DNA of 63,677 bases, the filler included, from Hausera hauseri (Eukaryota): the NCBI GenBank assembly GCA_046269625.1. It is 11 parts of 11 records of this genome, joined end to end, with 100 filler letters (N's around TTAATTAATTAA, not from the genome) between each part and the next. Parts side by side here need not be neighbours in the genome. Positions count along the whole stretch, not along the records: positions 27,385 to 33,927 come from JBJURY010088877.1; 10 more parts are not named here. One strand, given 5' to 3'. A program made the position numbers and the translations under genes. Of the stretch, positions 3,646 through 43,140 are shown piece after piece. Each line of letters starts with the position of its first letter. Within the stretch, counting starts at the first letter, position 1. The notes beneath the pieces were generated by a model. That model did not search any database. It was not told where the DNA came from and saw only the letters and a program-made list of their open reading frames with translations.

Positions 3646-4059
3646 CAGTATTGAGGAAATTGGAAGTAGACATAAGGTCGATTTGTATTATTTTTTGGTA
3701 GAAAATTTAGCTTGTCAATGACAAAACCTGTAGGTTCAACTGTGATGAGAGTTACAAACGATGCAATATTTAACAAGAAAACTACTAAAGAAGCTATAAC
3801 AGAAAATATGTTATGTACAGGTCCAAAATTAAGAGTTATACTATTGACACAATAAACGAGATTTTTGGAAAAACTCAAGGCGATGGAGACCGCTTACGTA
3901 TATGACATATAAAAGGAAAAAGGAAGTAAACAAAGAAGGTTAAATCAAGCCAGAAATGGAATTCCTGCGATAAAAAATTTAAAGCATTAAAAATGCCAAG
4001 CTCTAGTAAACATAAATTTAAAACTATAAAAAATGCAGTATAGTTAGTATTTTTGATGA

Positions 4060-4690: not shown

Positions 4691-4799
4691 TCATGGAAAA
4701 TCACAAACTGGACATACACGTTTCTTCTCTGCTCCGTGAATGTCATGGACGGTAATGTTCAGATATACTGGAGTCAAATTACAGATACGCAATGACTAC

Positions 4800-8069: not shown

Positions 8070-8169
8070 NNNNNNNNNNNNNNNNNNNNNNNNNNNNNNN
8101 NNNNNNNNNNNNNTTAATTAATTAANNNNNNNNNNNNNNNNNNNNNNNNNNNNNNNNNNNNNNNNNNNN
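8070..8169. other. Artificial contig linker (44N-TTAATTAATTAA-44N); identical linkers at 12702-12801, 16969-17068, 23236-23335, 27285-27384, 33928-34027, 44063-44162, 49473-49572, 54475-54574, 59268-59367
   Basis: Same 100-nt structure ten times; the core gives stops in all six frames. Confidence 0.98.
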
Positions 8170-10120
8170 CAGTTCATCCTCACAATGATGGACCGTTCCT
8201 CGCGATGGCCAGAGGCTGTCCCGCTTCGGAGCACCAACACAGAAACAATCGCAGACGTTTTCATCCGCACTTGGATCAGCAGGTTTGGATTACCCCGCCA
8301 CATCATTTCGGACCAAGGTCCACAGTTCAAATCCAACCTGTTTAAAGTCCTTGCCAATCGATTGAGAATTAACCACATTAACAATTCACCATATCATCCC
8401 CAATCGAACGGCCTTATTAAACGCTTTTACCGAACAATAAAAGCGTCTTTTAAAATTCTTGTTGAATCTATTCGCAGTTAAACCACACTCCTTTCGTACG
8501 TTCTGCTTGGCTGGCGGAACACACCATCTACTTCTACAGGCTGTTCACCTGCAGAAGCATTATTTGTCACTTCCATCAGATCACTATTTGAGCTGAATGA
8601 GCTGGGCAATACTCATACACACGAAACCATACAATCGGCAGAGAAACACTTCGTTGAGATCAGCAAAGACTCATTTTGCAGATTGTTACACACAAATGAA
8701 CCCTACATACCGACGATTTATATACTGCCAAGTTATTTTGGTTAAAGAATCAGACTCCATGTGATTTTCAACCTCAATATGTCGGCCGTTACAAAGTAAT
8801 TCGCTTACATTCCCACAAAATCATCATTTTCAAAGACGACAAAGAAGTAACCGTTCACATCTATAATGCTAAACTGGCTTTTTTCATTGACGATACGTCT
8901 CCCATCGAAGTTACTTCTCCACCAAAATCTTTATACCACGCGCAGCAATCCAACAATTCACCTTCCATCTCTGATCAATGTCGTAATCCACTTGCCCCTA
9001 CGTTTTCTCCAAAAACTTCCACTTCAATCTCTTCTCACAATTTAGCCTCTCTCTCCCCATCCGATTTTGCACATTCAAGCCTTCCACCACTTCCTTTATC
9101 CCCTAATAACAACTTGCTTTCTCCTTTTACAGCACTTCCTCCATCAAACACCATTTCGACTTTACCAATCTCTCCATCTACACCTTTCATCATTCCAACC
9201 TCGTGCACACCACCTTTCAACGACCTTCCTTTGCTTCCTCCATCTTCTCGCTCTCTTTCGCCTCGTATCGCTTCACCATTTTCTCTCTCTCTTTCTTCTT
9301 CCACACCTTCCTCATCTTCGGCGTTTTCTTCCATCTTTCTCCCCACACATCAATTTTACTCCTTTCACTTCCGCTTCACAACTTCCTCCTCTCTTTACCT
9401 ATTACTTTATCCCTTTTTCTCTCTCTACTACTACTTCTGTTTCATCTTCCACTTCCACTCTCTCACATAATTCAATTCCAACTTCTACTCCAACTTCTTT
9501 CTCTCTTCCTTTATCCGCAACTACACCTTTAATAATTCCTTCGTTTTCAACAATCTCTCTTCATCCTTCACCTTCTTCTTCTCTTCTTTCTGACTCGTCT
9601 TGGCATCACACAACACTAACAATAAAATCTGACCATTTTATCCCAACCTCAAACTTTGCAAATAAACACACAACACAAAGACAAAACACGCAGAGTCATA
9701 TTCAGCAAATATAGCAGGGAAAATCGTTAGAAGGCACCCAACGTCTCGTCCACACTAAGACCGACTGACACAGACACTTTTTCGTTTTGCGGTTTTTTCT
9801 CTTTCTTTTTTACTCTTTATAGTTTTTACTTTGCCACGGGGGGTGATGTGGTGCCCACAGCGGCCGGCACACTCTGGCCCATTTCGTTTGACACGGCCAG
9901 GCGTCCGTTGCCGCCGCGACAGCCTCATAGGCGGGTCCCAATTTCCCGCTTTGAGGATCGTGTCATTAGCCTGAAAATATTAACAATGATCCATGAATAG
10001 CCACGGCGTCGAGCTTATCAAAAACAAAAAACATATTCTGCCTTAATCTTATTGGTTTATTCTGGAATATTATTGTTAATTCTTTCTCATTCGAAAATTC
10101 TACGTTGAACGACTCTCACA
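8170..10120 (+). mobile_element. 3' part of a Gypsy element (integrase core, Ser/Pro-rich tail, PPT, 3' LTR); same family as 27895-33220
   Basis: DRSSRWPEAVPL..FGLPRHIISDQGPQF..PYHPQSNG; closely similar to ORF 29349-30083; PPT GGGGGGTGA at 9838-9846. Confidence 0.9.
9847..10120 (+). repeat. Probable 3' LTR (274 bp, TGTG...CACA)
   Basis: Starts TGTGGTGCCCAC immediately after the polypurine tract; ends GACTCTCACA exactly where GPCR coding sequence begins. No second LTR is available for confirmation. Confidence 0.65.
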
Positions 10121-10519
10121 ACGGTTATCATAGTTACTTTGTTCATTTCAGTTATTGGAATTCCAGCAAATATTATTTCGATTGTAATTATTCGGAAAAA
10201 ATCAGCAGAAGGAACTTTACGATTGTTGTTAATATGCTTAGCCGTTGAAGATTTACTTCTGTTAATAACGTACGTTTTCTTTTACATCATTCCAACGTTA
10301 TTTGGTCAAGAAAAACCTTTTTTTGTCAAGATGTATGTACCTTTTGCCGATAATTTTATATTTAACATAAATTGGATAAAAACGTCTGAGACCTATACAG
10401 TCATACTTACAACGCTGGAAAGATACATAGCCATTAAACATCCCTTTCGAACGCCAATTATCTGTGGCCTAAAAAGAATTATTCTATCACTCGTGATGAT
10501 TTTATCGTTTCTGGATTAA
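10121..10519 (+). pseudogene. Rhodopsin-class (peptide receptor-like) GPCR fragment, TM1-TM4
   Basis: VIGIPANIISIVII (TM1 GxxxN), LICLAVEDLLLL (TM2 LAxxD), TLERYIAIKHPF (ERY..I.HP); truncated in TM4. Confidence 0.85.
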
Positions 10520-10543
10520 TGAATTTGTCGCCGGTGATAATAG

Positions 10544-10830
10544 ATGCCCAAACCAATGAATTTAGAACCTCAGTCAAAAAAATCAATCAAATCAAAAAGC
10601 CATACTAGCCCACTAAAAGACGAATTGAATGATGATAGTCTGCGTTTCAACAGTTCTAGCGACATAATCGTACCCGATGAATTTCACGTTGTAGTCTATC
10701 ACAAACAGTCAAAAGTCGCATACAAATGTTCCATCTGTGAATATGAATCAAGTTTTACGAAAATAGTAAAGGTCATATTGTACGCAAACATCTAGAAATT
10801 CCAGCTAATACATGCAGTGGTTCCTTTTTC
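10544..10830 (+). pseudogene. C2H2 zinc-finger gene fragment
   Basis: YKCSICEYESSF.. continues by frameshift into KGHIVRKHL. Confidence 0.5.
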
Positions 10831-12009
10831 TGGGAAATGGCGGACTAGACATGTTAATTTCAGTATTAACATATGATTCATCTCCTGAAACATTTACGTG
10901 ATGAGGATGATGACCACTTTGCAAGCCTTTATTAATTAAATGTTCTAGTAATGCTTTCTTACTAGTGTTACCATNNNNNNNNNNAATACCTGTAGATTTA
11001 CAATTCCTTGAAAATTATGAGAATTTCGTTGACAATTCTCCAAAGAACTTTCGTCTAAACTATAAAAACCGCGATTTTCGCACGAGTTGACATTAGGCAT
11101 GGAACAAGCAAAATTTTGTTCACTCAATAACATTCTGGCCAAATGGAAAATATGGTTCAAGATCAGAATGACGAAATCCTAAAGTCTGTAAATTTAATCT
11201 GTCGTTGTGTGGATAATATTTGACAGTGTTAAATCGGTCTGTGTAAAATTGTAAAAAATTTTTTCGTTTTAATACACAATAAATATTTACAACCGTGAAT
11301 GAAAATTTCGAGTTGTTAGCAATTTTTGCATTTTGGATTTGGATTCTGAACCTTGTTGATTTGACTTTGATTTCTGCAGTTTGTCATTTCATTTCATCAA
11401 TCATTGTCAATTTGTGGATATTATTTGTTATAATCTCATAACCGATTGCATTTATACATGTTTATGGTCATGAATGTATATCCTGTTTACTATATCTGCA
11501 TCAAATTTTGACTATAATCATTCATGGGATACGTGATTATTATCCAATTCATATTCACGATATTTGTGCACCTTCCTAGTTACTTCCGTGTCGTCGGTTT
11601 CTACATCTTCACCAGAAAACTGGTAATCACGAGTTTCACGTCGCTTTCGCCATCTGTCTGTATTATCCGGACCAGAATTGTTCATATTTGTATTTTACGA
11701 ACCAAATTTATACGAATTGTAAACTTTTTCCGACGATAAATTTTCTTTAACAAATGGAACATTTGATTCCTTTTTTTAAATCATTGGGGCCGTAAAAATC
11801 TATAGATAATATTGAGAGTATTTAGTTTATGTTTAAACGTTTGTTCAATTCGTTTGTCAATGGCCGTGAATTTTGCTCATGTTGCTAGTACTGACTTTAT
11901 TTTCGCTATCTGGAGTGGGACAATAATCTGATTGGTTTATTTGAGTTACTCTTGCACTGGCTGCAGCTGGATTGTGGTTGCGCTCGTGCTTGCGGCATCA
12001 ATCGTGGTG

Positions 12010-13311: not shown

Positions 13312-14551
13312 TACACCCTCTGTCCCAAAATAAACAAGAATAACTTTCTATGCTATGAACCGTGGACGCCATCTGTCGGATGGTGACTTAACTAACTATC
13401 AAAGTTTTATGACATGTCGTTCAGTGGAGGCCGAAATTCAACGCACTAAGTGACAGTTGTTTTAGCACAATATTAAATTTAGTTTTAAAATTGGTAAAAA
13501 TGCTGCGGAAACGTTTGAATTTCTGCAAAAAGTTTATGATGATAACTGTATATCCAAAACACAAGTGTTTGAGTGGTTCCGACGATTCAAGGAAGGCAGG
13601 GAAGATGTGGATGACGATAAACATACAAGCCGTCGCAGTCCATCTGATGTGATTACCGAAGAAAACATCGATAAAGTACGTGATTTCATGAAAGTGCCCC
13701 AGAATTCTTCAATCAGATTAATGGAAATGGGGCTTAACATACCGAAAACAACAATTCATCGCATTTTAACTGAAAAACTTTGTCTAAGAAAATTACTTCA
13801 AAGTTTGTTCTACATCAACTGAATGATGACTAAAAATTAAACCGAATGGAACATTGCAAAGACATCATTAAACACGCTCGAAATGACGAAAACTCCTTAA
13901 ACACTATTGTAACTGGTGATGAAACATGGTGTTTCCAATACGAACCAAAAACAAAGCGTTAGTGATGAATGGCGGTCACCAGATGAAGGAAATCCAAAAA
14001 ATCGCGTTTGGCGAAGTCAAAAATCAAAACAATGCTCATTTGTTTTCTCGATTCTAAGGGAATTATCCATAAAGAGTTCTGTTCCAAATGGGATAACCGC
14101 TAATGGTGAGTATTATCTTCAAGTACTGAAGCGTTTGCCATTCTGTATTCGTCGTGTTCGTCCTGAATATCGAGAACCAGGCAGTTGGAGATTTTTGCAT
14201 GACAATGCACCTTCTCATCGTGCGACAATTATCAGCGATTTTTAACTAAAAATAATTTTTTTTTGCTTCAACACTCCCTGCACTAGTCGGATCTAGATCC
14301 CTGCGATTATTTCCTACTTCCTAAACTCCGTTATGAAAGGAAACCGTTTTTCATCAATTAAAGACATTCAACGGACGACAACCGCCATCCTCAACAACAT
14401 TTCAATCAACGACATACAAAATTCATTTGATGCACTTGTCGAACAAGCTATGGAGATTTTTTCGAATAAATAAAATGATTTTTGTAAAAATTAATAAACT
14501 ACTTGTGCGGACTTTTAATCCATTCCGGTTTCTTTTGGGACAGATGGTGTA
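13312..14551 (+). mobile_element. Tc1/mariner (DD34D mariner-type) transposon, full length, inactive
   Basis: About 30-bp imperfect TIRs TACACCcTCTGTCCCAAAAtAAAC..GAAT (13312-13341) and its complement (14522-14551) with terminal TA; about 1.24 kb. Confidence 0.9.
13470..14470 (+). pseudogene. Mariner transposase
   Basis: WFRRFKEGREDVDDD, IVTGDETWCF, FLHDNAPSH, SDLDPCDYFL; multiple frameshifts. Confidence 0.92.
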
Positions 14552-14809: not shown

Positions 14810-15490
14810 CTTACAGGGAACTCAGATTTTGATGAAATTTTGCTCTTATCCAGAAATATCTGAGTTCTGAATAATAATTTTTGTATTATCGGTATTTCTT
14901 GCGTAATTGATTCTATTATATGAAAGCAAAATACAAAAAATAGCGGAGTTTAATTTAATAAACTAATGAGTATATCAAGGTCAGATAATACACGCAACTT
15001 TACATGAACCATTTTATATTTGGAAAGTATTTTTGTTCAGTTGCACAGAATTTACACATTAGTTCGGTTTTTGTATTAAAACAAATAAAACAAAGTAGTG
15101 CATGAATGGAAATCCATTTATAAAAGTTTCGCAAATTACTTGAATACAGAAACAAATTGTACTGCTTTGTTTTATTTGTTTCAATATCAAATTCGAAATA
15201 ATGTGCAATTTCTGTGCATTGAACAAAATAACTTCCCGAATAAACAACGATTTGTGTAAAGTTGTGTGTAATATCTGATCGGGATATACACAATTTTTTT
15301 TAAATAAAATGCCGTTATTTTAGGTATTTTATGTTTCATATTGAGAACCACATATGTAAGAAGTACCGATAACACATTAAATTATTATCCAGAACTCAGC
15401 AGTCTCTGGATAAGAGCAAAATTAATGATATATTTGAATCCAGCATACAAAGTTACTTTACTGTACAGAATTTCATCAGAAACTAAGTTT
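14810..15490. repeat. Degenerate long inverted repeat (MITE/foldback-like)
   Basis: Nested complementary blocks 14836-14873/15385-15423, 14981-15003/15256-15278 and 15021-15058/15202-15236. Confidence 0.65.
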
Positions 15491-24429: not shown

Positions 24430-25430
24430 TCACTCAATATGCGACGGAAATATCCAACTCGGTATAATGTATCAGCGACACTTGACGAGATATTGTTTAT
24501 TCGAAAAATGGGCGGTTTTCCAGTAGTACTTGCAATTTCTGTTTGTAAAATTTTCCGAGTATTTTGTTACCATTTTAATTTTCTAAACCGTACATAACAG
24601 ATGTTTGATTTATGTTGATTGCTGAAATTCCCAATTGAAATTCTTAATGAATGGTGTCGTACTCAGCTTTGAAATAGGTACATGATCACCAATTTTATAC
24701 TTGGGACGTTTAATTAGTCGTTGTCGTTGTTGTGTTCGGTTCTGGTAAAACCCCATGTCCAATCATCGATTACTACCACCGGCCGTAATCCGTTGATACC
24801 ACGATGTATCGAATGATTGTATGCATGGATAATATCCGGTAGTACATTTATCCAGCGTTTTTTGCCCTGCTTGGTAAAGAATGTTTTCAGTCGGCGGCGT
24901 AAGATTTAATTAAACCGTTCAACAAGTGCAGCTTTGTATTATGAAAACACCGAGTAGTAGTTTACACGGAACCGCCTCAAAACCAATGCAACATGGAAGT
25001 TGCAAAATTCTTTACCCAAATCCGTTTGTACATGTTTCGGTGGTTGTTTTTGCTGCTTAATTAATCTGTGAATAGCGTCGGCAATCTCTTTACCCGATTT
25101 GGATTTGACAACAATTGTACGCGCAAAACTATTAAACACATCAATACATATCATCACATATTGATACCCATCGTTGATGCTGGCGTACGGAATCAATTCC
25201 ATGAGATCCATTTACAATACATTATTTACACCTGCAGTATGGTATACACGAGTTGAAAACCGCCTTCTTATCGGTTTGTTTAGGCTTTATGCTAACTCTT
25301 TTGCGAGCCAACGTTGGGTTTTTTACCGAGTCTGTTTGACATTCTTTGCCACTTTGTAGACGCCAATATACCTGACGGGATGACACGGATCATATCACAC
25401 GTCACCCATCGTTGTCGTCAATGATGTCAT
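24430..25430 (-). pseudogene. Polinton retroviral-like (rve) integrase
   Basis: YDP.HP, WL....AYSLNKPIRRRF, MDLMEL..NDGYQYVMICIDVF, VQTDLGKEF, KAALVERFN, YNHSIH, KYKIGDHV. Confidence 0.92.
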
Positions 25431-26103: not shown

Positions 26104-26665
26104 TTACACATGTACACCTTTCTGGCAGACAATATCTGTTCGTACACGCATGTCATCGGGACAATGGTGTGTAAAGTCATTAAACAAATATCCATGAGGT
26201 TTGCTCGTAGCATCTTGATATGCATCTATCAAGTAGGCTCGGTTGTGAGGAAATGCTTGTCGTGCAACATAATCAATGATAGTCTGACCACGAGGATTTT
26301 TGAACAACACCAAATAGTGTACGTTTAGATTTCTTGTTCGATGCTGTCCACCATGATAGATCATGTTTTGCGTAATGAAAATAACCGTCACACCACTGTA
26401 TCGCGCAATCTTCGCAAACAGGTTGTTGAATTCCAATTGTTTTGCGGCTTTCTGAAATAAATCGTCAATGACAATAACGTAATCGTTGCGTAATCCTCAG
26501 ACCAATTCCCATCAAACCCATCAGTCAACGTCATCGATTTTAATTTACAAAATTTCCGATGTCAAACCTGATTCACCATCATCACCAACACCCTGACGCC
26601 AGTAAATGTGGTTGTACCGCGGTGAATGGAACATTTCACGGTAGTTCTGCAATAGTTTACAAAGT
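26104..26665 (-). pseudogene. Polinton A32/FtsK-like packaging ATPase, Walker A region deleted
   Basis: YVIVIDDL (Walker B), VIFITQN, LNVHYLVLFKNPR, AYQDATSKPHGYL..RVRTDI. Confidence 0.9.
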
Positions 26666-26753: not shown

Positions 26754-27203
26754 ATGTTAGCTAATATCAACTATCGCGGAGATGTTACCGAGTGTGACAT
26801 TAACAAACTACCTTTTGATAAATGGAAGCCGAGGCAGTAGGTACTCAAATGTAAGCCGGATTTTACATGTATCATATTTCAATCGGGAAAGTGTCGTATT
26901 ATGGGTTGTCGCAAACCAATCACAGCTGACAGTAACAGTAAGCTACTGCGATTCGGAATTGTCATTGACAAAATCCAATAAATAAGGGTAACTACTCAGT
27001 TAGACTACCAAACAATCAATCTGTACAAATTAGCAATGGCCACTGAATGCACGTATGAACCCGATCTGTTTCCTGCACTGAGACTTACATCTTTTCGCCC
27101 ACTTTGTGTCAATTTGTTTAGCAGTGGAAAAATTGTTGTACTCGGTATTCGGACAGTGGACTACGAACCGATTATTAATGAAATTAAAAACCATATGTTT
27201 TAG
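26754..27203 (+). pseudogene. Divergent TATA-binding protein (TBP)-like gene, 149 codons, two in-frame stops
   Basis: One frame from ATG 26754 to TAG 27203: MLANINYRG..TCIIFQSGKCRIMGCR..KIQ*IRVT..INLYKL..YEPDLFPAL..VNLFSSGKIVVLGIR. Both TBP repeat signatures (FxSGKxxxxG) and the YEPELFP-like motif are present; stops at 26838 and 26979. Confidence 0.85.
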
Positions 27204-28157
27204 TGAATCGAAATAATGTACATTGCGTAACAAACTATAAATACAAATCCCATGGTCATTCAGACATTACTGCCATAAACGCCGNNNNNNNNNNNNNNNN
27301 NNNNNNNNNNNNNNNNNNNNNNNNNNNNTTAATTAATTAANNNNNNNNNNNNNNNNNNNNNNNNNNNNNNNNNNNNNNNNNNNNCTCATGTTTTATGGAT
27401 CACAATTTCTATGATCGAATAATTTGATCGAATTCTTGAAGATCAATTTCTATAAAAAATAGTATCAAATCAACTGAAATAATATGACAGATATCCACAT
27501 GTGGGTTTTGTTGGTATAGGAAATAAGTATTGACCGAATTGGAACACCGTTTTGATGATATACATTGAGAATAGAGGTACAGATGGAAGAATTAAATTTA
27601 TCATTAAATTTCTTAGCCCATGTCTAGGTCGTGTTTATTCTTTTATTTTGAACAGCAGTAAGAGTCATATCAAGAAATGATGATGACATTGTTGTCACAT
27701 TTTAACGAGGTTCAATCAAAAAATCAGTGGCCAAAATAATTCCGTAAATGTAAAAAAAATAATTTGTACTGATATTAATTATGAAGAATGGATGTCGCCT
27801 TAAATTACAAAATATCTGTAAGTCGTTTATCATAAAAATACGAAACAGAAAAGTGAGAGTTATTGTTGCAAGTCGTCCATTAATTGATTTCATTCCGCTG
27901 CTTAAATCCTCGAGTCGGAATTTTGTTGTAAGCGTTGTGTTGTGCGAAGATGAGTCAGAAAGAAGAGAAGAAGAAGATGAAGGAGGAAGAGAGGTTGTTG
28001 GAGACAGACGGTTGAAGGTGTTCAAGAGAGTGTTGGAAGGCAAAGGAATAAAAAGAGGTGTAGTGGCGGATGAAGGAGGAGAGACGAAAAGTGACATAGA
28101 AATTGAAATGGTATTAGATGAAAGAGTAGAAGTAGAGGATGAAACAGAGGTAGTAGT

Positions 28158-28723
28158 TGTGAGTTTTCGTGTTAGTCGTATCCGGCGGACTATCGAACGT
28201 TTCGTTGGATTTAACCGTATCAGAATTCTGAAAATACACACGAGTCTGTCGACACGTTACATCAACATCATGACTCTCAATTTCATATTACACTGAGTTG
28301 CCCATAATTTCAATTTGAATTTTGTCGCCAATGCTACCTAATCGTTCAAAAATAATATCACCTGATGGATCGGTAATTGTAATAAAGTGTCCATCTTCTT
28401 GGCGATATTCAGTAAAGACGTACAAATCACCAGGAATATCATTATCATTCGTTTCGGCGTCTGAAAAATATTTTTTAGATTGACCCTTCTTCACATACAA
28501 TGGCACGATAGCACGTGGACTTGATTCTCCAGAAAAACCAACTTTTGTATAAATTGATCCGATATCAAATATAGCAGCACTTCGGTAACTGATATTAGAA
28601 AAAGAAAAATCGTACGGCATTGGATGTTTGTAAAATCCACAAAAATATTTATTTATTTTTTAATATTCAAAAAAACAGAGTTTTTATCAACAAATCACCC
28701 ATTGGGTGAATGTGGACACCACA
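28158..28723 (-). mobile_element. 566-bp insertion with LTR-type termini (TGTG...CACA) and 5-bp TSD GTAGT, nested in the Gypsy tail
   Basis: GTAGT at 28153-28157 and 28724-28728; the empty site is seen in the sister copy near 9425-9440. Confidence 0.8.
28288..28620 (-). CDS. Chimeric ORF with actin-related protein (ACTR10/Arp11-like) N-terminus
   Basis: MPYDF..SAAIFDIGSIYTKVGFSGESSPRAIVP is the actin-family phosphate-1 motif (DxGxxxxKxGFxGExxP); the rest is unrelated to actin. Confidence 0.65.
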   Translation of the reverse strand: MPYDFSFSNISYRSAAIFDIGSIYTKVGFSGESSPRAIVPLYVKKGQSKKYFSDAETNDNDIPGDLYVFTEYRQEDGHFITITDPSGDIIFERLGSIGDKIQIEIMGNSV

Positions 28724-29348
28724 GTAGTAGAGAGAGGAAGAAAGATAGGGATAAGAGTAGAGAGGGAAGGAAGTTGTGAAGCGGAGATGAAAGGAGTAAA
28801 AGACGATGTGTGAGGAGAGAGGGAGGAAGCGAGCACCGAAGATAAGGAAGGTGTGGAAGGAGAAAGAGAGAGAGAAGACGGTGAAGAGGGACAAAACGGA
28901 AGAGAGCAAGAAGATAGAGAAATTGGTGAAGTCAAAATGGTGTTTGGCGGAGGAGGTCTTGTAAAAGGAGAAAGCAGGTTGTCACCAGGGAATGGAGGAG
29001 ATGTTAATAGGCTTGAAGGTGGAGAATCGTATGTGGAAAAGGGGGATGAAATATAAGAAAAAGTTGAAGTAGAAGTCTTGGGAGAAAACGTAGGCAAAGT
29101 GGATTAAAAAATTGAGCAAAGATGGGAGGTGAATTTTTGGATTGCTGTGCGTTGTATAAAGATGTTGGTGGAGAAGTTGTTTCGATAGGAGCCGTATCGT
29201 CAATGAAGAAAGCCGGCTTAGCGTTGTTGATGTGGACTGTTACTTCTTTGCCGTCCTTGAGAATGATGATGTTGTAAGAGTGTAAACGAATTACTTTGGA
29301 AGGGCCAACATACTGAGGTTAAAAACCACACGACGTCTGATTCTTTAG

Positions 29349-30200
29349 TCATACGAACTTGGCAGTATATAAATCGTCGAGTACGTATGGTTTATTTCCG
29401 TGTAACGGTCTACAAAATAAGTCTTTGCTGATTGCAATGAAGTGTCTCTGGGCCGCTTGTATTGCTTCGTCTGTAGGAATATTGGCCAGCTCAGCCAGTT
29501 CGAATAATGGTCTGATAGAAGTACAAAATAATGCTTCTGCAGGCGCGTAGCCTGTAGAAGTAGATGGTGTGTTCCTCCAGCCAAGCAGAACGTACGGAAG
29601 GAGTGTGGTCCAATTGCGATTGGACTCAGCAAGGATTTTAAGAGACGTTTTCATCGTTCGGTGAAAGCGTTTGAGACGGCCATTCGATTGAGGATGGTAT
29701 GGTGACGTATGAATGTGGTTAATTCCCAGTCTATTGACAAGAGCTTTAAACAGGTTGGATTCGAATTGTGGATCTTGGTCCGAAATGATGTAGCGAGGTA
29801 ATCCAAACCTGTTGATCCAAGTGCGGATGAAAATGTCTGCGATTGTTTCTGTGTTGGTGCTCCGAAGCGGGACAGCCTCTGGCCATCGCGAGGAACGGTC
29901 CATCAATATGAGAATGAACTGATGGCCGTTGTCTAAGAGTAGTGGGCCTACAAGGTCAATGTGAACGGATTCAAAACGAGACGTGCAGGGAAAATGATAC
30001 AGTGGTGACTTTAAGTGCTTAGTAACTTTGTATTTTAGGCATGCCACACACTGCCTAATCCATGCCTGCACGTCAGAACGCATCGACGGTTATACTACTT
30101 GGCGTTGTAAGAGACGAAAAGTGGCTTTGGCACCGGGATGGTTCAACGAATGGATGTTGTTGACTTTAGGATTATTAGGTTTGGAGGTGTCAAAGGCCAC
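29349..30200 (-). pseudogene. Gypsy integrase
   Basis: H..HPG..CVAC zinc-binding domain, DLVGP, SDQ; third catalytic residue mutated (LKRFHR). Confidence 0.9.
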
Positions 30201-32324
30201 ACCGTCGATGGTTTTGCACGATGTAAAAGACTTAAGAATGTCTGGAGGTGGTTGGTTTTGTTAAAGTTTGGATTGAGAAAAAATTGGTGTAAAATCGGTC
30301 GAGCTGACCGATCGGGACAAAAAGTCAGCTACTAAATTGTCGACTCTGTTTAGGTGCTTAATTTCAAAATTAAATGTGGACAAATACGATATTTGCCTCT
30401 CCTGACGTGTTGAAGGCGATTTCATGGTAAGAATTTGAAGCAATGGCTTTTGGTCTGTTTGTATTGTAAAGGTTTGTGCGGTTAGCAGATGCTTAAAGTG
30501 TTTTACGGCAAGGACTATTGCAAGCAACTCTCGGCCAAAGGTTGAATATCTTTGCTCTTGTGCCGTGAATTTTCGAGAGAAGAATTCTAATGGCTCATGG
30601 AATCCATTTTTAACTTGATGGAGGACAGCACCTGCAGCTGTTATGGATGCATCTGTGTTTAAGAAGAGTTCTGCATGGGAGTCGGGATAAGCCAAAATTT
30701 CCACGGATTTTAGATTATCTTTGAGGTGATCGAAAGCGTTGACTAGCTTGGCGGTCCATTAAATAGGCTGTTTATTCTTGCCAGAGCTTAGTGATGCAAA
30801 TAGAGCGGTTAGAGTGGAGCAGTGTGGAATATAATTATGAATAAAGTGCAAGGTTCCGAGGAAAGAACGCATCTCTGTTGATGCATGTGGTAGCTGTATA
30901 TTTTTGAGCTGTATGGTGCACTCTGGCTGAGGTGAATGTCCGGAGGAGCTAATAACATGTCCTAGGAATTTGACCTTATGTTGAAAAAAGTGCATTTGGA
31001 GAAATTAATTTGCAAGTTGTTTTGGTGCAAGGGTTGGAAGATTAAACCTAAGTGCTCGGAGTGTTGTTTCGAGGAAGATGATGCAATTATGATATCATCG
31101 ATATAGGGTTAAGCAATGTCTAAACCTGATAGAACTGTATCAATATGCCTTGGGAAAGTCTTGAAAGCGCTGTGGAGTCCAAAAGGCATGAAATGTATTC
31201 GAAAAGGCCGAAAGGTGTAATGACAGCCGTTTACGGAATGTCTTCTGGGGCCACCGGAATTTGGTGGTATGCTTTGTGCAAATCAATGCAGGATAAAATG
31301 GTCGAACCATAGAGCCTGTGAAGAATATTATTGATTAATGGTAAAGGGTAGGCATCCATTGTTGTTATGATGTTGAGTTGGCGGTAAACACCGCATGGGC
31401 GAAAGGTACTATCTTTTTGGGAGCCACATGTAGTGATGAAGACCACGGAGATTTGGATCTTCTGATTATTCCTGATCTTTCCAGTTCGAGAAACTCAGCC
31501 TCCACTGTCTGTCTGCGACGAGGCGATAGCGGGCGGACCTTTTGACGTATGGGTCGTTGATGCGCTGTTACTATGTGATGGAAGGTGGATTTAGGTGGTA
31601 CGAATGATTTGTCCTTTTGCAACAGACGTGTGCAGGAAAACGAAATATATTGCTGTATGTCAGAGAGCAACGATGAAAATTTTTTGATGTTGTCGATGTA
31701 TCGTGATTGGATGCAGTTGATGTATGAGCTGTAGACGAGGTGTTGTGACAAGGTGGTATTAGGTGCAGGATGTTCGTGTTGAAGATGATGTTGGCAGCTG
31801 TTGTATCAGTAATAGGTGCCACGCAGTTGGCAATATCGTATTCGTTGCAGTAATAAAAATTTCTATATAATAAATGATTATAAAAATAATTCAAATCGGA
31901 AGTCGTTTTCTTTAGTATTGACTTGCTGGAATCGATCGCCCGGGTGGTCACCGAAATGCTGATAATTTGATTAAAGTTATTTCCGCTCTTTAAGGAACAT
32001 CGTTTACATTATACAAGTAAATTGTAGTACGGCAGAAAGTCTGAACCCAACATAGGTGTGCGTACATTGGCTATTGTAAATTTCCATGTGAATGTAGTTG
32101 GAAAGTGTGGAAGAGTGAACGTTAATATGGTAACTCAAAAAATTTGTAAAGGTTCATTGGACGCAATGAACAGTTGCTTTTTTGAAGTAAAATTATTTTG
32201 GATGTGTTGTGTTGGTGGCAGTAAGGAGATTGCTGCGCCGGTGTCTATGAGAAAATTAATGTTTTGCTTTGTTGGAGTGACGACTGCTAATTCCAACGTG
32301 AATACAGCAAAAGAAATGTGTCGG

Positions 32325-33220
32325 CTATCTTTTTGCAGGTTGTTGCCTTTGCTGGAACTCGTCGTGTTTCCCAGCGGCGAAATCAGTTTTTGTAGCTGGT
32401 AAGTTTGGCCTACTATTTTGTGTGGGTTTAATAGTGTTGATTTTATTGTGCGTGTTGTAGTTACAGCCAGTTAGGCATTTCTGTGCTTTTGTTCCAAATT
32501 TTGCGTCATAGATGCAAACGATGTTGCTTGTACTAAAATCGGAGGCGTAAAATTTACAACCGATGCAGCATTTCTGAGCATTGTTACCAAATGTATTGTG
32601 ATAGTAGCAACTAGACGACAGCGTGGGCGAAGGCGACCGTCTTTGTCGTTGATGAAATACATTAGGGGAAGCAGCCCTAGAAAAACCTCGTCGAGGCAGC
32701 GTTAACTCATTTAATTTCTTGTTTATGTTTTTAATTGTTTTTTGCAAAATTTCGTTGTCTGTGCGTAATTGCACAATTTGTTGCTGCAGCATTGCATTTT
32801 GTTGTTGGTGGTTTGTTGTTAATGCCGCAGAGGCAGTTGGTGCTGTGTGTGAGTGCAACACTTCATAGGCTTTGTCCGCCAGTTCGGCTAACTTTTTCAG
32901 TGCCGTGGAGTCTTCGACCGCAGTAAGCAAAGCTCTTATATGAAGGGGAAATGCGTTTAAAAAGTAACGACAAAGAAGTTCTGGACTATGCTCAGATGTT
33001 ACGCCAAGGATATTGAGGTGAGACAAAGATGTGCGCAAGAATTCAGAAGGCTTCGGAAGGACCATGGCGTTGTCATTGAAGAACCTTTGAATGATCGAGT
33101 CGGTTGACGGCTCAGTGAGCTTAAGAACAGAATTATAAAGTTGAGCATATGGATCGGTGTGGTGAAGGATGTCGATGATGTTTGTAATTTTGGTTTTGAT
33201 GATTTTTAACTTTGTACTAT
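32325..33220 (-). pseudogene. gag: Gypsy gag, 5' truncated, duplicated CHCC-like motif
   Basis: CYYHNTFGNNAQKCCIGC followed by CIYDAKFGTKAQKCLTGC. Confidence 0.82.
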
Positions 33221-33227
33221 AGATTAT

Positions 33228-33602
33228 GTGACTAAGCCAGATAAGAAAGTATTCTATTGTCCAAAATGTGACTATACATCGTTCGTCTCTCATTATGACG
33301 TTCGAAAACACTTGTTCAACATTCACTTCAATTGTTCTTGGAAATTTGCATTGTTCGTGATGAAATTTGTGAGTTCCAAAACAGTAATTACGAAATTGCC
33401 TTTGACTAGCAAATTGAATGAAAAATATGGAGTAAAAAAAGAATCGGTCTGTGTACCAGAAAGTAAGAAGAGGAAAGTAGATATATGTGACAAATGGAAC
33501 AATATGAAAATGTCGCACGACCAGTCAGAAGTTCTTTATCAAGGAAACAAGTTTTTACATACCAATAACAGTTCTTTTGAAGTAGCAGTAAGAGTGGATT
33601 GA
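33228..33602 (+). CDS. C2H2 zinc-finger-containing ORF or exon fragment
   Basis: FYCPKCDYTSFVSHYDVRKHLFNIH. Confidence 0.5.
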   Translation: MTKPDKKVFYCPKCDYTSFVSHYDVRKHLFNIHFNCSWKFALFVMKFVSSKTVITKLPLTSKLNEKYGVKKESVCVPESKKRKVDICDKWNNMKMSHDQSEVLYQGNKFLHTNNSSFEVAVRVD

Positions 33603-35276
33603 TGAAAAATTTTTGGCGAATAAATTTTTATTTTTCTGATTGTTTTAAAATAAATTATTTTCTTATTAGTTTTATATTTATTTGAAATTACCTTTTTTGA
33701 AATTGATTTCTAATTTCGGTTTCTGTAAGTTTCCTGAACTAAAAAGTATTCACGTCATATTTTGAGTAAGTGTGTTGTCGTTCTGTAATGCCAAAATAGA
33801 AATGTGATTAATAAACCTTTCAAGGAAACGGATTTTACTGTAAATCGGGAATTTTTATAACATGTGCGTGTAAAATATAATGCTGATTAATAATATGACA
33901 AAAGTTTAATTAAATTAATTTAATTAANNNNNNNNNNNNNNNNNNNNNNNNNNNNNNNNNNNNNNNNNNNNTTAATTAATTAANNNNNNNNNNNNNNNNN
34001 NNNNNNNNNNNNNNNNNNNNNNNNNNNCCCGTGTTGTTTCCTTACTGTTGCATCACCTGATGTTATCCTTTCTGTACAGCAAGGATGGAGTTGCCTCTCC
34101 ATTTCCACATTGTCTGCTTGCCTGGGCTAACAATATGGAGGAAGTGCCATGCCCACGTTGCACTACCCCCCTCTTACATAAAAACATAAATATATAATCA
34201 TCGATAACAATGGCATGACACTACGTCTGTGAATTTGTTACTGGTCTTCGCCTTAGTGTCACAGTTCACAGTTTACGAACTCTTTACAAGATATCACACT
34301 CGTTCCGGAAGTTCATAGCCCTTTTCCGCTCGCGCTGTGCATGACTATAATTTTTGTTTGTTTGTTTGTCTTCTTTGACATTGGCAATATTTTTTAAGCT
34401 CAAATCATGAATCCAAAATTTTGTTTCCTGTACGAAATCTCGTATTCTGAGGACTCTAGCACTTATTACAGGATAATTTGGGAGAGGAGTATAAATTTGA
34501 TTTTAGAAAATAAAAGTGAAAAAATATATCCTGTAATATTTCCAAGGAAGGTCCGTTCAATACGGGGTTTCGTACATAGGGTTTCATAGGTAGGACTATA
34601 TAGCAATTAGTAATAGTTTTAGTGACAACGGGCATAAAGATAGAAAAAGAGGGTGTTTAAAATACAAAAGGAAAGCAGTTTCATTGTAAGAGGGAAGCAG
34701 GTGGATGTGAGAGAAGGAGTGATTACGTACAAAGAGATAGAGACAAAAACAGGTTAAAGAAAATAAAGGTTCATGTTAAGACAGGTGAAAGATTGTTCAG
34801 TTTATGAAAGCGGCGAGCATTCTTCTCGGAGGAGCAGTATCTTATAGTGGTCACTACTCTTGATTTATTTAGGTTAGTTTAGAATTCAGAAATGATGGCC
34901 CGACGTTTAGTAGTACCCAAACCCCTAACCCCCACATACTTTGTCACTAACCAACAGAGCTCGTTTTTGATTTTCACGCAGAGTTTTTTGTCGTTTTGCG
35001 AGGAATACTTGTGTGTATGTAAGTTTGTGTATGGGTAAGTTTGTGTATCTACGAATGTATCTGTGCGTGTATGTACGTACATACAAGCATTTCAAGCGTT
35101 TGCTGTTTTTTCGCGTTACGTCATATTCACTTTTTCGCAGAAAAATGACTAAATGTGATGAGCAGCTAAAATAAAACGCAGACAAACTTTAAGTATTAAG
35201 GGATATAATAGAAAACTAGTGCAGTAACAATGTAAAGTGCACTAAAGGATAATGGAATAGTGAAAACAAATAAAAT

Positions 35277-35544
35277 ATGGGTGGTGGAGTCTTACGAGGT
35301 TGGCGAAAAGAAAAAAAGATAACGACTGTTTAGAGCAACAAGATCTTCATCAGACACATCAAACGCAGAAGACATAACACACACTCACGCTACAACAACA
35401 TCATGACTTTACACTCGCGATGTAGTTGTAGTGTGTGTTGTCTGTTATGCTTTCTGTGTTTGATGTGTCTAATGAAGACCTTTTTGGTCTAAACAATCGT
35501 TGCTTCTTTTCTTTTCGCCAACCTCGTAAGACTCCACCACCCAT
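35277..35544. repeat. 268-bp hairpin (perfect outer inverted repeat of about 38 bp)
   Basis: ATGGGTGGTGGAGTCTTACGAGGTTGGCGAAAAGAAAA and its exact complement; imperfect pairing continues inward. Confidence 0.9.
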
Positions 35545-35859
35545 GTTTTTTTTTTTTCACTCCTTCGTATTTATGTCTCGAAAAATCTAATTCTAATGCG
35601 TACTGATTGTAATTTCAAATATTTTTGCTTCTTCTTCGTACGCCTTCATCACCTACATGACAGGGGAGTGTAACTATGGTGGACGAGTGACGGACGACTG
35701 GGATAGAGTTGCCTCTTGACAATCCTGGGAGACTTCTACAGTGAGAATCTTATTATGGACACAAATTACTACCATTTACCACTGAGGACAAACTATGAAA
35801 ACTGTGTTAAATTTATTAAGGCAGGTCGATAAATTTGATATTTGTTATGTTTAAGGTAA

Positions 35860-35990
35860 TGAATCCCCGCTTTGACGGGTTGAATTTTTCTGATGAAAAC
35901 GGCTCCACAGGTCCACCCAGCATCAAAAAATGGGTACCGGAGAAATTCTGTGGGAAAGTAAAGGTGACCAGGCATTGGGCTGACTACATA
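35860..35990 (+). mobile_element. SINE remnant with Nin/Deu-like central domain
   Basis: GTCCACCCAGC..AAAATGGGTACC motif. Confidence 0.45.
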
Positions 35991-36469
35991 CACACTGTTA
36001 ATCAGTGAGAAATATGGACACTAACTCCACATTCCCTTATATCTTTACAGTGTGAATGTGTTTCCTTTACTTACTAGATAATTAAGGTATGCCTGCTTGT
36101 TTAGGTAAAATTCACATATTTAGTATTTACCCAGTCATTTGGGGTTTTGGTATCCAGGCACAAGTGAAAACATTGAGCCAGGTTGGTTTTCGTGTTTGAT
36201 TGACACATGATCTCTAATGGGCGAGTCCTACAGAGGTCAGGTGTTTTCATGAAAATATTTTGAAGAGTATATTAGAGAATATACAAATGTTACCTGCTGT
36301 TCCAGTTTTTCATCTAAAAGTTTAGTTTAATCAAAAAGTCAACATCTTTACGCACGCAAATAAGTGTTTGTACTCTCCATTCTGGAGGATCTCAGCTCAG
36401 TGCACATACTCCAATGCAACAGGAAGGACCCTATAGGTTGGTTAGATTTTTCCATGAAATTTGTCAGGT

Positions 36470-36688
36470 CCTCGGCTGTTAGGCTTATTCTTTTTCGATT
36501 TCCAACTGCCAAGGGATTTTTAACATGCACAGCAATGTCCACGGACGTCCAGTCGCACTAGCCAGAGATCGGGGGAATTTTATTTTACTAGAAGATGCAG
36601 GGAAAAAAATCCTAAGTTTTTCCATTGGGATTTGAACCCCACACCTCTAGCACTCAAGCAGACATCTTACCTTGAGCCACTGAGCCGC
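36470..36688 (-). mobile_element. tRNA-derived SINE (Meta-domain-like); related partial copy at about 39864-39960 (+)
   Basis: tRNA-like head with A box TGGCTCAAGGTAA and B box GGTTCAAATCC, then GGACGTCCGTG..GTGCA[TC]GTTAAAAAT.CCTTGGCAG shared by both copies. Confidence 0.65.
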
Positions 36689-38039
36689 TTTTTTAAAATT
36701 TAGCTTCAGTGTGCACTGAAGTTGAGGGCAATGCTTGGCTTCCTAGAAGTGGTTTCCCCCACTTTGCTTGAGATGATACAAATCATTTCCCCATTAGCTG
36801 GCAGCTTTCCTCTTCATTGCCGAAGAGGCATGGCATCTTGACTGATCATCAGCTCAATCACTGTGTAAGACAAACCTACTATGGATCCATGAGAACCTTC
36901 ACAATACTAAACAGGTGGGCACCATTTTATGCATGGGAAGGGTAAGGACAGCAGGTGATATATGTGCATAAGTAGTTAGTCACTTAGTTAGTTAGTTAAC
37001 AGATCATCATCATTGCATGCAGAATAAGTCCATACGTGCTTCGACCTCCTTCTAAGTAGCTCCCATTGCACACGACGACCAACAGTTCCAGTTCTGTGTT
37101 GATTAACCAAACATCTGGTACCTCCAGCATCGCACTCATATCTCACCACTCCTTGCATCACCACAAGTTCATACATTCTAGAGAGGGACACAGACTCTGA
37201 CTCTTTAGCAAAATCCTCCTTCCGGCCGATATTGCGGAGGGCATTCAAAATGTCAGCTCAGTCCATGACTCTGCCACTCTTGATAGTAACAGTGCTCACC
37301 AGTTTGTCTGCTCGTTATGCATAAGTAAAATCAGTGCAAGAACAGAAAAATCAAAACTAGGCTTCAGCAGCATGAAAATGGTCGTTACCTAACTGTGACC
37401 AAAAAAAGTGCCAAGTGTTTAATCATGCCATTACTGCTTTACATGTGTGATACATGGACAGTAAACAAACAAATGGAAAAACAGCTGGAAGCTGTTGGAA
37501 TGGGGTTTTAGAGAAAAGTAGCAAGAGATTTCCTTATTGGCAAAGAAAACAAAAAAAGATAAGTCTGCATGAAAGTTGGAGAATATTGACATATGAAAAA
37601 AAGGCAGTCAGAGATCTTAGGCATGTGATTAAAAAGTAGCAGCTGGAGCGTTGAGAAGAGGAGGTAAACAAAAGGAAACATTTTCCACAATGATTCCTCT
37701 TCTCCTTACAATAGCTTTTCCATCACCTACTTCAATGTATCTAGACAAGTGCCTCTAATCACCCTGTTTACTGTATAACTCAAATAAGAGAGCTGATTAG
37801 AGGAACTAAGTATGGCACTTTGTGGAGAGGAATGATTACCCATACCTTGGCACTTATGTTGTTGTTATTGTATGTTGGTGCCTGGCCCTGACGAGATCTC
37901 GAAGCGATCTCACTTCTCACCGTCCCATGCAAAGATATAAAGAGCTATCAAGAAAACATTACATACCAGAGACAAGAATGCCAACAATATCTGTACCTTA
38001 TCTTCTATCTACACAGAACTGAGAAAACCAACAATACGC

Positions 38040-38713: not shown

Positions 38714-40095
38714 CTAAGGGCTCAACCAGATGCAGAGACTTGACAGCATAAGTGGATAGCAGGAGGAGGAGATTTGGAGAGTCTCCTTCCACCTTCGTAT
38801 AAGGTAATTCACCTCCTGGTGTCTTTGGGGGCTTCTTATAATTTTTTTTTGGGTGTACTTTCACTGTAGCATTCTCATTAAAAAGCAACGATTTGGTTTT
38901 GTATTGTCCTCATTGTTTACAGCGTGACATGTTTTAACTTATAAAAACAATTTTGTTTCACGAACATAAGTTAAAACATGAACCAATGCAATTTTTTCCT
39001 TGTAGTTTTTATTTATTAATGAACTAAATTGTTTTTCAAGTAAGCGGTTTATGAACCAAAGTGTTCGTCAAGTAAGCGGTTTATGAACCAAAGTGTTCAT
39101 GAAAAGTATAACTGTATACCAGAGCCTTACAGTGTAGAGAATACTGACTGTATCGAGTATGCAACTAATGCTTGCAATGTCCAGACTGTTGTTGGTGATA
39201 CTTGGTTTCTTGTTTAGGACACAATTTAAGGAAAACACAGAGTTGCTGTTCATTGACGGAAGAATTAGTTTACCTTCATCTTCGGGTGATAGTTGGCTGA
39301 CATCAGACGTTGTGGATGTGGTGTGATGTTGATAGACTGCATTTTGAATATTTATTTTTCTGTCCATAATGGTCCGAGTATTCGGTGAAGTCTACTGTCC
39401 ATTATAACGAGCGTCGAGCCCAGCGTGTGTGTTGCGGGAACGGAATCACTAAGTAGCATGCCTGTGGTTAGGCCAAGAGCTGTTTCTTGCAGTGCTGCGA
39501 ATTCGTCCACCAGCCAGGTGTTTAGGTACTTGGCAGTGCCCATGTGTTTAGGTACTTGGAAGTGCCCTGAGCTAGTACATTTTTTTTATGTATGGTACAA
39601 ATGAATGGTAACTGAAACTGTGGTTATTTTTTCGTCTATGTGAGCGTTCTGTTTGTCTTTTTTAGGGTCTATGTCGCAGTTCTGATAATGCTTGATCGCT
39701 ACACGTCGGAAAATTTGTAATGTTGTGTGTTATTAAAGGTAATGGTGACGCACGACCTTTGTCAGTATCCTTTTATTGTTATATTATGGGATGTATGCGA
39801 TGCGTTACCGGTAAGTTTTTTCTGAACTGCCTTTTCTTTATTTAAAGAAGGCCTATAGTAGTGAGGTCGGACGTCCGTGTACATTGTCGTGCACGTTAAA
39901 AATTCCTTGGCAGCTGGAAGCGAATCTAAGTAGAGTTGTCTAACGAGAAAAGTAGTATAACCAGCACATAATAACTACGATTAAACTAATTTTTTTTAGT
40001 ATTAACCTCCCTACAGGCTGCCGTGGTTATTTCCCAGTATCCTTTGTTTCCTTCCAGTGTATGCCATTGATCCTAGTGTACTGTTCCTATCACAT

Positions 40096-43000
40096 AAGGT
40101 TGGGTATCATACGGATACTGGAGGCGGTTTAGGTCGCCTTTTTCATGCTTTTGCGCACTAAGAATTACATGTTGAGTCATGGAAGGGTCATATTTTCTAT
40201 TAAGGTTGGGTACCATAAGGGTACTGGAGGTGGTTTAGATCATCTTCTGTATGTTTATCCATACTTATGGGAGCCTTTTGGGTCATGAAAGAATCATATT
40301 TTCTGTTAAGGTTGAGTATCATAATGGTACTGGATGTGGATTAGGTCGACTTCTTCATGCTTACCCATGCTTATGTGAGCCTTGTGGGGCATGGAAGGGT
40401 CATATTTTCTGTTAAGTTGGGTTTCTTGGGGGTGCTGGAAGAGGCTTAGGTCATCGTCTTGATGCTTACACATGCTTATGGGAACCTTTTGGGTCATGGA
40501 AGGGTCATATTTTCTGTTAAGAATTGGGTATCATAAGGGTACAGGAGGTGGTTTAGGTCATCTACTTCATTTCTTAGGCATGCTGGGTCATGAAATGGTC
40601 ATATTTTCTTTCAAGGCTGGGTATCATAAGGATGCTAGAGGTGGTTTAGGTCATCTTCTTCATGCTTATGGGAGCTTTGTTGGGTCATATTTTCTGTTAG
40701 GTTTGGGTATCATAAGGGTACTGGAGGTGGTTTATGTCATCTTCTATTGCTTATGCATGCTTATGGAAGCATGAGTTGGCAAGTTTTCATGTCAGTAACT
40801 TTTCATGTCAACAACTTTCATGTCAACAACTTTGTCATGCCAGCAACTTTGTCATGTTGGTAATTGTTCATATCAGTGACTTTGTCATGTCTGCAGCTTT
40901 TCATGTTGGCATCTTCACATGCCAACAATTTTTCATCTTGGCATCTTCACATGCCAACAACTTTTCATCTTGGCATCTTTTCAGGTCTCAACTCTTCATG
41001 TTGGTAATTGTTGTCATGTCAACAACTGTTCATGTTGACAAACTTACATTGACAGAAATCAAAGGATACATTTTACTTGAATTTTCTCATCTGTTTTTTT
41101 AACTTTACTATGCACAGATCCTGCACACGTCAAATGAGAGCTGATCCATTGATAGAGGAAAAACTCATGTGACAAAAGTCAATAAAAAATGAAATATAAA
41201 AGAAAAAGAAATCAATTATAACAAATAAAACAAACTTCAGAAAAAAATGGAATGTGATGTTTATGTTGGCAACTTACATTGACAGAAATCAAAGGATACA
41301 TTTTACTTGAATTTTCTCATTCAAAACAAACTTCAAAAAACAAAAGGAACGTGGTGTTTTCCTCTATCTGTTGGACCAGCTCTCACTTGACATGTGCATA
41401 ATCTGTACATAGTAAAACAGCAAATAAGAAACCTATAGTAAAATGTATCCTTTGATTTCTGTTCATGTAACTTGTTGACATGAACAGTTGCTGACCTGAC
41501 AAAAATTACCAACACAAAATGTTGAGACATGAAAACTTGCCAACATGCCAAAGAGAAAACTTGCCAACATGCCAAAGATGCCAACATGAAAAATCAATAC
41601 ATCATAAGAGGCCAACATAAAAAGTTCTTGGCATGAAATTTGTCAGCTTGAGAAGTCACTAACATGACAAAAATATTGGGATGTAAAGTCGCTGACATAA
41701 AAAATGTAAAGATGAGCCATGGCAAGATGTCAATATGAAAACTTGTCAACATGAAAAGATGCTGACATGAAAACTTGCCTACACGACAAAGTTGCCAACA
41801 TGAAAAATTACAAACATGAAAAGATGCACAATGAAAACTTGCCAACATGAAAGCTGTCAACATGAATGTTGTTGGCATGAGAAGTCGCTGACATGACAAA
41901 ATCATTGACATGAATTTTGTTAACATGAAAAGTTGCCAACATGACAAAGTCGCTGACATGAACATTGTAGACATACGTTATCAGGATGACAAAGTTGCCA
42001 GAATGACAAAGGTGCTGACATGAAAGTTGTCGACATGAAAAGTCGCTGACATAACAAATTACCGACGTAAAATGTTGCTGACATGAAAACATGTCAACAC
42101 GAAAGTTCTTGACATGAAAATTTGCCAACATGAAAATATACCAATATGAAAAATCCTAATAGGAAAACTTGAGGCATGAAACACTACCAACATGAAACGT
42201 TATTGACAATGACAGTTATCATGTCGCTGACATGAAAGTTGCTGACATGAAAGTTGTTGATATGAAAGTTGTTGACAAGAAAAGTCACCAATGTAAAAAG
42301 TCGCTGACATGACAACTTGCTGAGACACATGCTCACCTAAGCATGCATAAGAATAAAGAATGCGACCAAAACCACCCCTAGCACCCTTATGATACCCAAC
42401 TGTAACAGAAATTATGACCCGTCCATGACCAAAAAGCTACCTTAAGCATTTTAAGTATGAAGTAGACGACCTAAACCATCACCAGTACCCTCATGATACC
42501 CAACCATAACAGAAAATATGACACTTCCATGACCCAAAAGGCTCCCATGAGCATGAAAAAGACGATCTAAAGTGCCTCCAACATTCTTATGATACCCAAC
42601 CTTAACAGAAAATATGACACTTCCATGACCCAAAAGATTCCCATAATCAGGAGTAAGCATGAAGAAAATGACATAAACCACCTCCAGTACATGTATGATA
42701 CCCAAGCCTAACAGAAAATATGACCCTTCCATGACCCAAAAGGCTCCCATGAGCATGAAGAAGACGACCTAAAGTATCTCCAACACCTTTATAATACCAA
42801 ACCTTAATAGAAAATATGACCCTTCCATGACCCAACATGCTCCTATAGACTTGATTAAGAATGAAGAAGACGACCTAAACCACTTCCAGTACCCTCATGA
42901 TACCCAACCTTAACAGAAAATATGATCCTTCCATGACCCAAAGGGCTCCATAAGTATGCATAAACATGAAGACGATATAAACCCCCTCATGCACTCTTAA

Positions 43001-43140
43001 GAAACCCAACCTTAACAGAAAATATGACCATTCTATGACCCAAAAGGCTCCCAATAGGCTCCCAAAAGCATGCATAAGCATGAAGAAGACAACCTAAGCT
43101 ACCTCCACCACTCTTATGATACGCAACTTTAACAGATAAT
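40096..43140. repeat. About 3-kb modular palindrome (foldback-like): 100-120-bp tandem units, 14-16-bp minisatellite and a unique block, mirrored
   Basis: AAGGTTGGGTATCATAAGGGTACTGGAGGTGGTTTAGGTC..GGGTCATATTTTCTGTT units at 40096-40770 and their complement at 42340-43140; CATGTCAGCAACTTTT-like units at 40780-41040 vs 41480-42320; unique block 41040-41165 vs 41350-41480. Confidence 0.88.

Follow-up and report, generated by a model that had tools for sequence, protein, structure and literature searches.

A 566-bp insertion, probably a solo LTR, with an Arp11 5' coding end, inside a Gypsy element of Hausera hauseri

Introduction

The systems closest to the locus described here are LTR retrotransposons that have taken up foreign sequence. 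In animals, host mRNA capture by template switching is described as yielding mainly 3'-truncated pieces and multi-gene fusions that lie between the LTRs (PMC5131818), and for BARE-2 the account given is of foreign sequence switched into the LTR (PMC13317346). Solo LTRs are reported to retain the target site duplication, or TSD (PMC10886601). For the CsRn1 clade, 4-bp TSDs and modified 3' ends have been described, and the motif CX2HX9CX3C is given as the Gag signature of the clade (PMC2582038).

Here we report on an insert that lies within a truncated CsRn1-type Gypsy element of Hausera hauseri (assembly GCA_046269625.1; contig at 27385-33927). The window, by which we mean the whole stretch of 63,677 nucleotides that was analysed, consists of short contigs strung together with N-spacers, and the features discussed are collected in Table 1. 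An initial annotation had read the insert as host gene fragments packaged between bare att ends, in the manner of a Pack-type or TRIM-like unit. Our analysis points instead to a solo LTR of a Gypsy subfamily that probably captured mRNA 5' pieces in its LTR through template switching.

Results

The insert is 566 bp in length, is flanked by GTAGT on both sides and has TGTG/CACA ends. A (TAG)n repeat makes its register ambiguous: TG..CA is given only by 28158-28723 with a 5-bp TSD, and the alternative register of 28157-28723 with a 4-bp TSD is also compatible, but its end is non-CA. Since a scan of the whole window found TGTG..CACA with a 5-bp flank repeat four times, the TSD is weak taken alone and an empty site is required. 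One of the three other candidates, at 35010-36903, was examined and showed no LTR-like features. Empty sites of the insert, on the other hand, are present in three sources. The paralog of the host element lacks the insert at 9235-9628, and joints skipping 571 nt (566+5) occur, among the best 15 of 19 joints, in 6+2 contigs of X1 and in 1 contig of X2, these being two public runs with related sequence (26% of words for X1, 4% for X2). The 566-bp insertion is real, as the initial annotation had it, and its TSD, TG..CA ends and empty sites agree on an insertion of the integrase type. That annotation had also allowed that the TSD might merely be a by-product of the (TAG)n microrepeat; this, or an assembly artefact, would sit well with the fourfold occurrence of the terminal pattern and with the ambiguous register, but the sites shorter by 571 nt in 8 X1 contigs, 1 X2 contig and the paralog, together with internal junctions of the insert that are bridged in other runs, largely rule it out, and we regard it as extremely unlikely.

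The paralog lies on a separate contig and is 83% identical to the host element over 1011 nt, their homology stopping at 27920. Judged by the usual Gag pattern, the N-terminus of the host Gag is apparently missing. In the place expected for it, and antisense to the host Gag, is a zinc-finger-like ORF of 130 aa (33210-33602, plus strand; Pfam zf-C2H2 only at E 0.15), over most of which the Gag frame is also open, as far as 33524.

The paralog continues from its integrase through a purine tract into an LTR start at 9847, to which the start of the insert (element strand) is identical at 12 of 13 nt. At one mismatch or fewer this 13-nt match occurs at only these two places on both strands of the window, with 0.03 expected by chance. 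Past the first 13 nt there is no likeness between the insert and the 9847 LTR (116 of 200 shuffles score as high), so the insert is not the LTR of 9847. Both the similar start and the dissimilar interior had been proposed initially and are borne out; a CTCACA end common to the two, which had been proposed as well, is unsupported, the CACA at 10117 falling inside a GPCR-like frame. This frame belongs to a sense, rhodopsin-type, 3'-truncated piece that runs from TM1 to about TM4 (Pfam E 3e-8), and the zinc-finger-like piece that follows it has no Pfam match at E<=0.001 and shares no single open frame with it. If that LTR is short or truncated, the GPCR piece could belong to the host DNA next to it; alternatively, 9847-10974 may possibly be another type of gene-carrying LTR within the family. 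Together with the repeat content, the rhodopsin-type GPCR piece points to an animal genome.

Table 1. Coordinates of the insert, its modules and the associated Gypsy sequences
Feature	Position	Strand	Remarks
Host Gypsy internal fragment	27920..33200	-	Gag CX2HX9CX3C, RT, RNase H 30261-30758, integrase 29349-30089
Paralog	8170..9846	+	separate contig; integrase, empty site near 9410-9421, purine tract before 9847
Paralog 3' LTR start	9847..10974	+	then GPCR piece 10109-10516, zinc-finger-like piece 10544-10900 (by eye)
TSD left copy, GTAGT	28153..28157	+	sequence and empty sites
TSD right copy, GTAGT	28724..28728	+	sequence and empty sites
566-bp insert, likely solo LTR	28158..28723	-	orientation that of host Gypsy
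5' terminus (att end)	28682..28723	-	first 13 nt match 9847 LTR start 12/13; deepest X1 part
AT-rich leader	28621..28681	-	ATTAAA at 28664, AATAAA at 28657
Captured ACTR10/Arp11 5' coding end	28448..28620	-	ATG and about 57 codons, 3'-truncated; border from contig comparison
Second segment	28188..28447	-	in frame; deep in both runs; includes stop 28288-28290 of the window copy
3' terminus	28158..28187	-	ends CTCACA; frame open to last base

The interior of the insert had been described as a 110-aa ORF with an ACTR10/Arp11-like beginning, joined to a second, weakly GOLD/p24-like segment. The ORF is present at 28620-28291, and its start matches Pfam Actin with an E of 1e-6. Its best PDB matches are to ACTR10, at about 29 bits, with residues 12-47 lying ungapped on residues 12-47; for the same ORF start ACTR10 scores about 28.5 bits against 16 for Arp3/4 and about 14 for actin, in good accord with the proposed identity. 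Among 1.84 billion proteins the only match in a single stretch was P0006, a complete Arp11 that scores 302 bits against ACTR10 and 82 against actin and is 42% identical to the piece over 65 residues. The same ungapped register and the P0006 match imply that what the insert carries is the genuine 5' end of an Arp11 gene, cut after about 57 codons. P0006 itself is ruled out as the product of the parent gene, 42% identity being too low. Two of the four protein matches (P0003 and P0005) are bacterial repeat proteins that scored via several weak stretches and were set aside. The fourth, P0004, is a bird protein record with four tandem copies of an exon-sized N-terminal piece of Arp11; it represents an unrelated locus and is possibly a prediction artefact.

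The Arp11 piece is joined in frame to the second segment, so the ORF is chimeric as had been claimed. Past the stop at 28288-28290 the frame runs on without another stop to the final base of the insert, and 97% of X1 depth and 33/36 of X2 depth differ from the window within the stop codon. In shuffled sequences an open frame of 123 codons arose in 5 of 2000 cases and one of 167 codons with a single stop in 2 of 2000; the two other element-strand frames of the second segment contain 16 and 2 stops. An LTR frame of this kind may once have led into Gag. As for the identity of the second segment, the GOLD/p24 label drew no support from profile, PDB sequence or fold searches: there was no Pfam match of the GOLD/p24 family and no PDB sequence match at E<=10, and a single-sequence model of poor quality (mean pLDDT 44) had no Foldseek match at E<=0.001 and a best VIA-align hit at Z 4.3 (rmsd 3.0, 58 aligned). 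The absence of such matches excludes nothing. The model suggests, with low confidence, a segment rich in beta-strands. Searches for a relative of the whole ORF returned 1 candidate in one case and 174 in another, none of them significant, as well as 117 pattern matches, none of which was confirmed, and 0 of 5 exact matches.

Silent changes make up 10/24 in the second segment (p 0.09 if transitions are weighted and 0.014 if they are not) and 2/10 in the Arp11 piece, the latter being the neutral expectation, in a test that used the 40 best-supported of 58 variant rows. Taken together these figures are at best weak evidence for selection.

Within the insert we found no terminal direct repeats (102 of 300 shuffles score as well as its two halves; the longest exact internal repeat is 10 nt), no PPT (longest purine run, 9 nt), no PBS motif of the tRNA-Trp type, the sole PBS type scanned, and a terminal inverted repeat of 4 bp only. 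Nor was there any retroelement coding sequence in a Pfam scan, any tRNA match or any Rfam match. Lacking an internal PBS, a PPT and direct repeats, the insert could not be reverse-transcribed alone. A TRIM has two terminal direct repeats with an internal PBS and PPT, features that the insert lacks; of those that mark Pack-type elements (Pack-MULE, Pack-TIR), a host-gene fragment between the ends is present and a TIR is absent. The packaging of fragments between bare att ends that was originally proposed, whether TRIM-like or Pack-type, is thus not supported, and the interior recurs elsewhere. In its att-only form, a mini-element carrying host fragments and mobilised in trans by the Gypsy integrase, the proposal would account for about 13 nt alone being common with the LTR of the paralog, for about 40 nt of terminus being common to many different continuations, and for no parent element having been found. 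However, reverse transcription yields ends fit for integrase only where a PBS, a PPT and R repeats are present, and the insert has none; there is no apparent route to att-only linear DNA, and a solo LTR gives the same anatomy by known steps. We consider such a mini-element quite improbable.

To the insert we aligned 714 X1 contigs and 27 X2 contigs, the latter with a coverage gap at 28462-28537. Summed contig depth, which is a coarse measure and not copy number, is about 11,000 in X1 at 28690-28723, 130-630 at 28443-28670 and 1,100-10,700 at 28177-28442, and it shifts sharply at module borders. Branch points, at which the sequence continues into alternative neighbours, lie among the best 12 of 73 at 28691, 28682, 28674, 28644, 28639, 28447/28442 and 28188/28182, with 28639 and 28644 represented by one X2 contig each. 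By eye, X1 and X2 show similar alternative neighbours at 28447 and 28188/28182, and the second segment meets an alternative neighbour both upstream and downstream. Among the best 16 of 743 matches, X1 bridges the junction of the Arp11 piece with the second segment (28411-28542, 11 differences in 132) and also the terminus/Arp11 side (28600-28713), and X2 bridges the terminus, the leader and the Arp11 piece (28540-28723, 17 differences in 180) in a contig that stops exactly at 28723. The uneven depth and the shared ends with other neighbours indicate that the Arp11 form is a minor variant of a family that shares the terminus and the second segment. Since each interior part recurs with other neighbours, the LTR of a repeat family fits better than a one-off package.

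Two further explanations bear on this modular pattern. In the first, an LTR-mediated retrocopy with an internal Arp11 piece integrated at this site and was later reduced by deletion to the outer end of each LTR and some interior. Internal capture is a documented pattern (PMC5131818; for captures in TRIMs, PMC4717578), microhomology deletions are described as common in LTR elements (PMC5408684), and the insert is indeed a patchwork of modules with differing neighbours in X1 and X2. Against such a remnant, the joins between terminus, leader and Arp11 piece and between Arp11 piece and second segment are bridged in diverged contigs, so that they are not private to the window locus, and no PBS-like motif follows the 5' terminus; we judge it unlikely. 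In the second, a single old insertion or recombination would later have been multiplied as passive cargo in copies of the host family or in a segmental duplicate. Both runs contain the host family at high depth, so passengers would multiply, but none of the listed matches (best 16 of 3781) bridges either insert junction, empty-site joints occur, the end of the X2 contig at 28723 coincides with the end of the insert, and the origin of the insert would be left unexplained. This makes passive spread very unlikely.

Variation among the aligned contigs is considerable. The variant rows of the Arp11 piece rest on 1-9 X1 contigs each, with 6/7 rows in 4 or more, and all three of the indels listed for the insert fall in the AT-rich leader, within 28641-28681. 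Sites at which at least 85% of X1 depth is unlike the window number 13/24 in the second segment and 6/7 X1 rows in the Arp11 piece (40 of 58 rows); these may be changes private to the window copy, or differences between organisms. Elsewhere, 55 viral-contig matches to a 16-mer were attributed to chance, none extending past 38 nt, the 25-nt terminus had 0 matches in metagenomes, and in the public-run search no RNA dataset was listed as containing the insert sequence.

The window also holds several features on other contigs. A TATA-binding-protein fragment lies at 26982-27200 (plus strand; Pfam TBP E 4e-9) on a contig that carries an integrase at 24942-25211 as well. An ORF at 26104-26496 on the same contig has no Pfam match, and we take it to resemble a Maverick-type packaging ATPase. 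At 60409-63501 (plus strand) is an uninterrupted LINE ORF of 1030 aa with endonuclease and RT motifs, presumably RTE-like, which may be young. Long imperfect palindromes occur at 35259-35561 (85% over 306 nt) and 14836-15423 (75% over 600 nt), composite tandem arrays with units of about 106 nt and 16 nt form an inverted pair at 40095-43146, and a Mariner-type transposase HTH fragment (Pfam HTH_48) is found at 13466-13819 (plus strand).

Discussion

Several attributes of the insert are those of a solo LTR, namely TG..CA ends with a TSD in the 4-6-bp range, an empty site with one copy, and an interior that is free of PBS, PPT and coding sequence for retroelement proteins. Its correspondence to paired LTRs, taken lengthwise, is just 12 of the first 13 nt against an LTR start adjacent to a PPT. 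Speaking for an LTR is that the 9847 start adjoins a purine tract behind a paralogous integrase and that there, too, a 3'-truncated gene piece follows in sense orientation. Speaking against a solo LTR, the analysis brought to light neither a full-length element bounded by a pair of such LTRs and equipped with PBS and PPT nor a parent gene. As the TG..CA register gives a TSD of 5 bp against the 4 of CsRn1, the donor may be another family.

Under the solo-LTR interpretation, the reverse transcriptase would have strayed onto a co-packaged Arp11 mRNA and then returned, such that the Arp11 5' end landed in the LTR. From LTR biology, strand transfer would be expected to copy the new piece into both LTRs, after which it would spread with the subfamily. 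Integrase then inserted a copy into low-complexity sequence that follows the integrase of an older Gypsy, the step to which the TSD, the TG..CA ends and the empty sites attest. Recombination between the two LTRs could then have removed the body of the element, leaving one LTR with its TSD. The window copy has a stop and many changes absent from the aligned contigs, and is likely inert.

Although speculative, it is tempting to extend this model to the family as a whole. Here only one short LTR end, of about 40-85 bp and bearing a poly(A)-like signal, would be fixed in the family, and the rest would be a cassette in which host mRNA 5' ends are exchanged; each captured start codon would have to stay in frame through older pieces to the end of the LTR and into Gag. 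The X2 branch points at 28644 and 28639 come shortly after the AATAAA at 28657, so that the first ~85 bp might be U3-R and the remainder a U5 cassette. Such an arrangement would explain why the junctions are in frame and the frame is open, why branch points closely follow AATAAA, and why silent changes are mildly in excess in the second segment. The absence of a single open frame in the pieces of the paralog, however, speaks against its being general, and we hold the cassette to be a doubtful, if attractive, possibility. If true, the element would borrow host leaders and start codons and serially shuffle gene starts. Searches of open-access full text turned up no report of animal LTRs in which protein-coding 5' ends serve as swappable cassettes.

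Capture between LTRs is already known. A piece captured inside an LTR would be duplicated with every round of replication and would persist in solo LTRs, in this way scattering gene pieces with start codons through the genome. Such pieces can confuse the annotation of genes, give rise to chimeric genes or yield small RNAs that match the parent, which in this case encodes a dynactin subunit, and were the frame to enter Gag, host gene starts would become working parts of the element. A single decayed copy such as the one in the window probably does nothing.

Comparison with known systems

LTR-mediated retroposition in animals, as described in PMC5131818, likewise involves partial, 3'-truncated host pieces, fusions of two or more of them and further spread. 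There, however, captured sequence takes the place of internal ORFs flanked by two LTRs, whereas the Arp11 piece is part of a single unit, some 100 bp in from one end, and is likely inside an LTR. The gene-carrying TRIMs of PMC4717578 are similarly small, are without retroelement proteins, and have a 5-bp TSD and exon fragments, but in the account given these fragments are between two LTRs, and our insert is without terminal repeats. Among the CsRn1-clade elements PwRn1 and AgCR (PMC2582038), the Gag motif is that of the host element; their TSD is 4 bp and the text of that report does not mention gene pieces in LTRs, and the parent family of the insert may differ.

Host-derived sequence inside LTRs, and solo LTRs with 5-bp TSDs, are described for Cassandra, Helenus and Ajax (PMC10886601), as here, although in those TRIMs the sequence is tRNA- or 5S-derived and in the insert it is protein-coding with a start codon. 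Finally, BARE-2 and Veju (PMC13317346) embody the same idea as the one put forward here, in that abnormal template switching is described as placing foreign sequence in the LTR region and founding a subfamily. The donor was another retrotransposon for BARE-2 and unknown DNA for Veju, both in plants, whereas the piece in our insert would be the 5' end of a host protein-coding gene.
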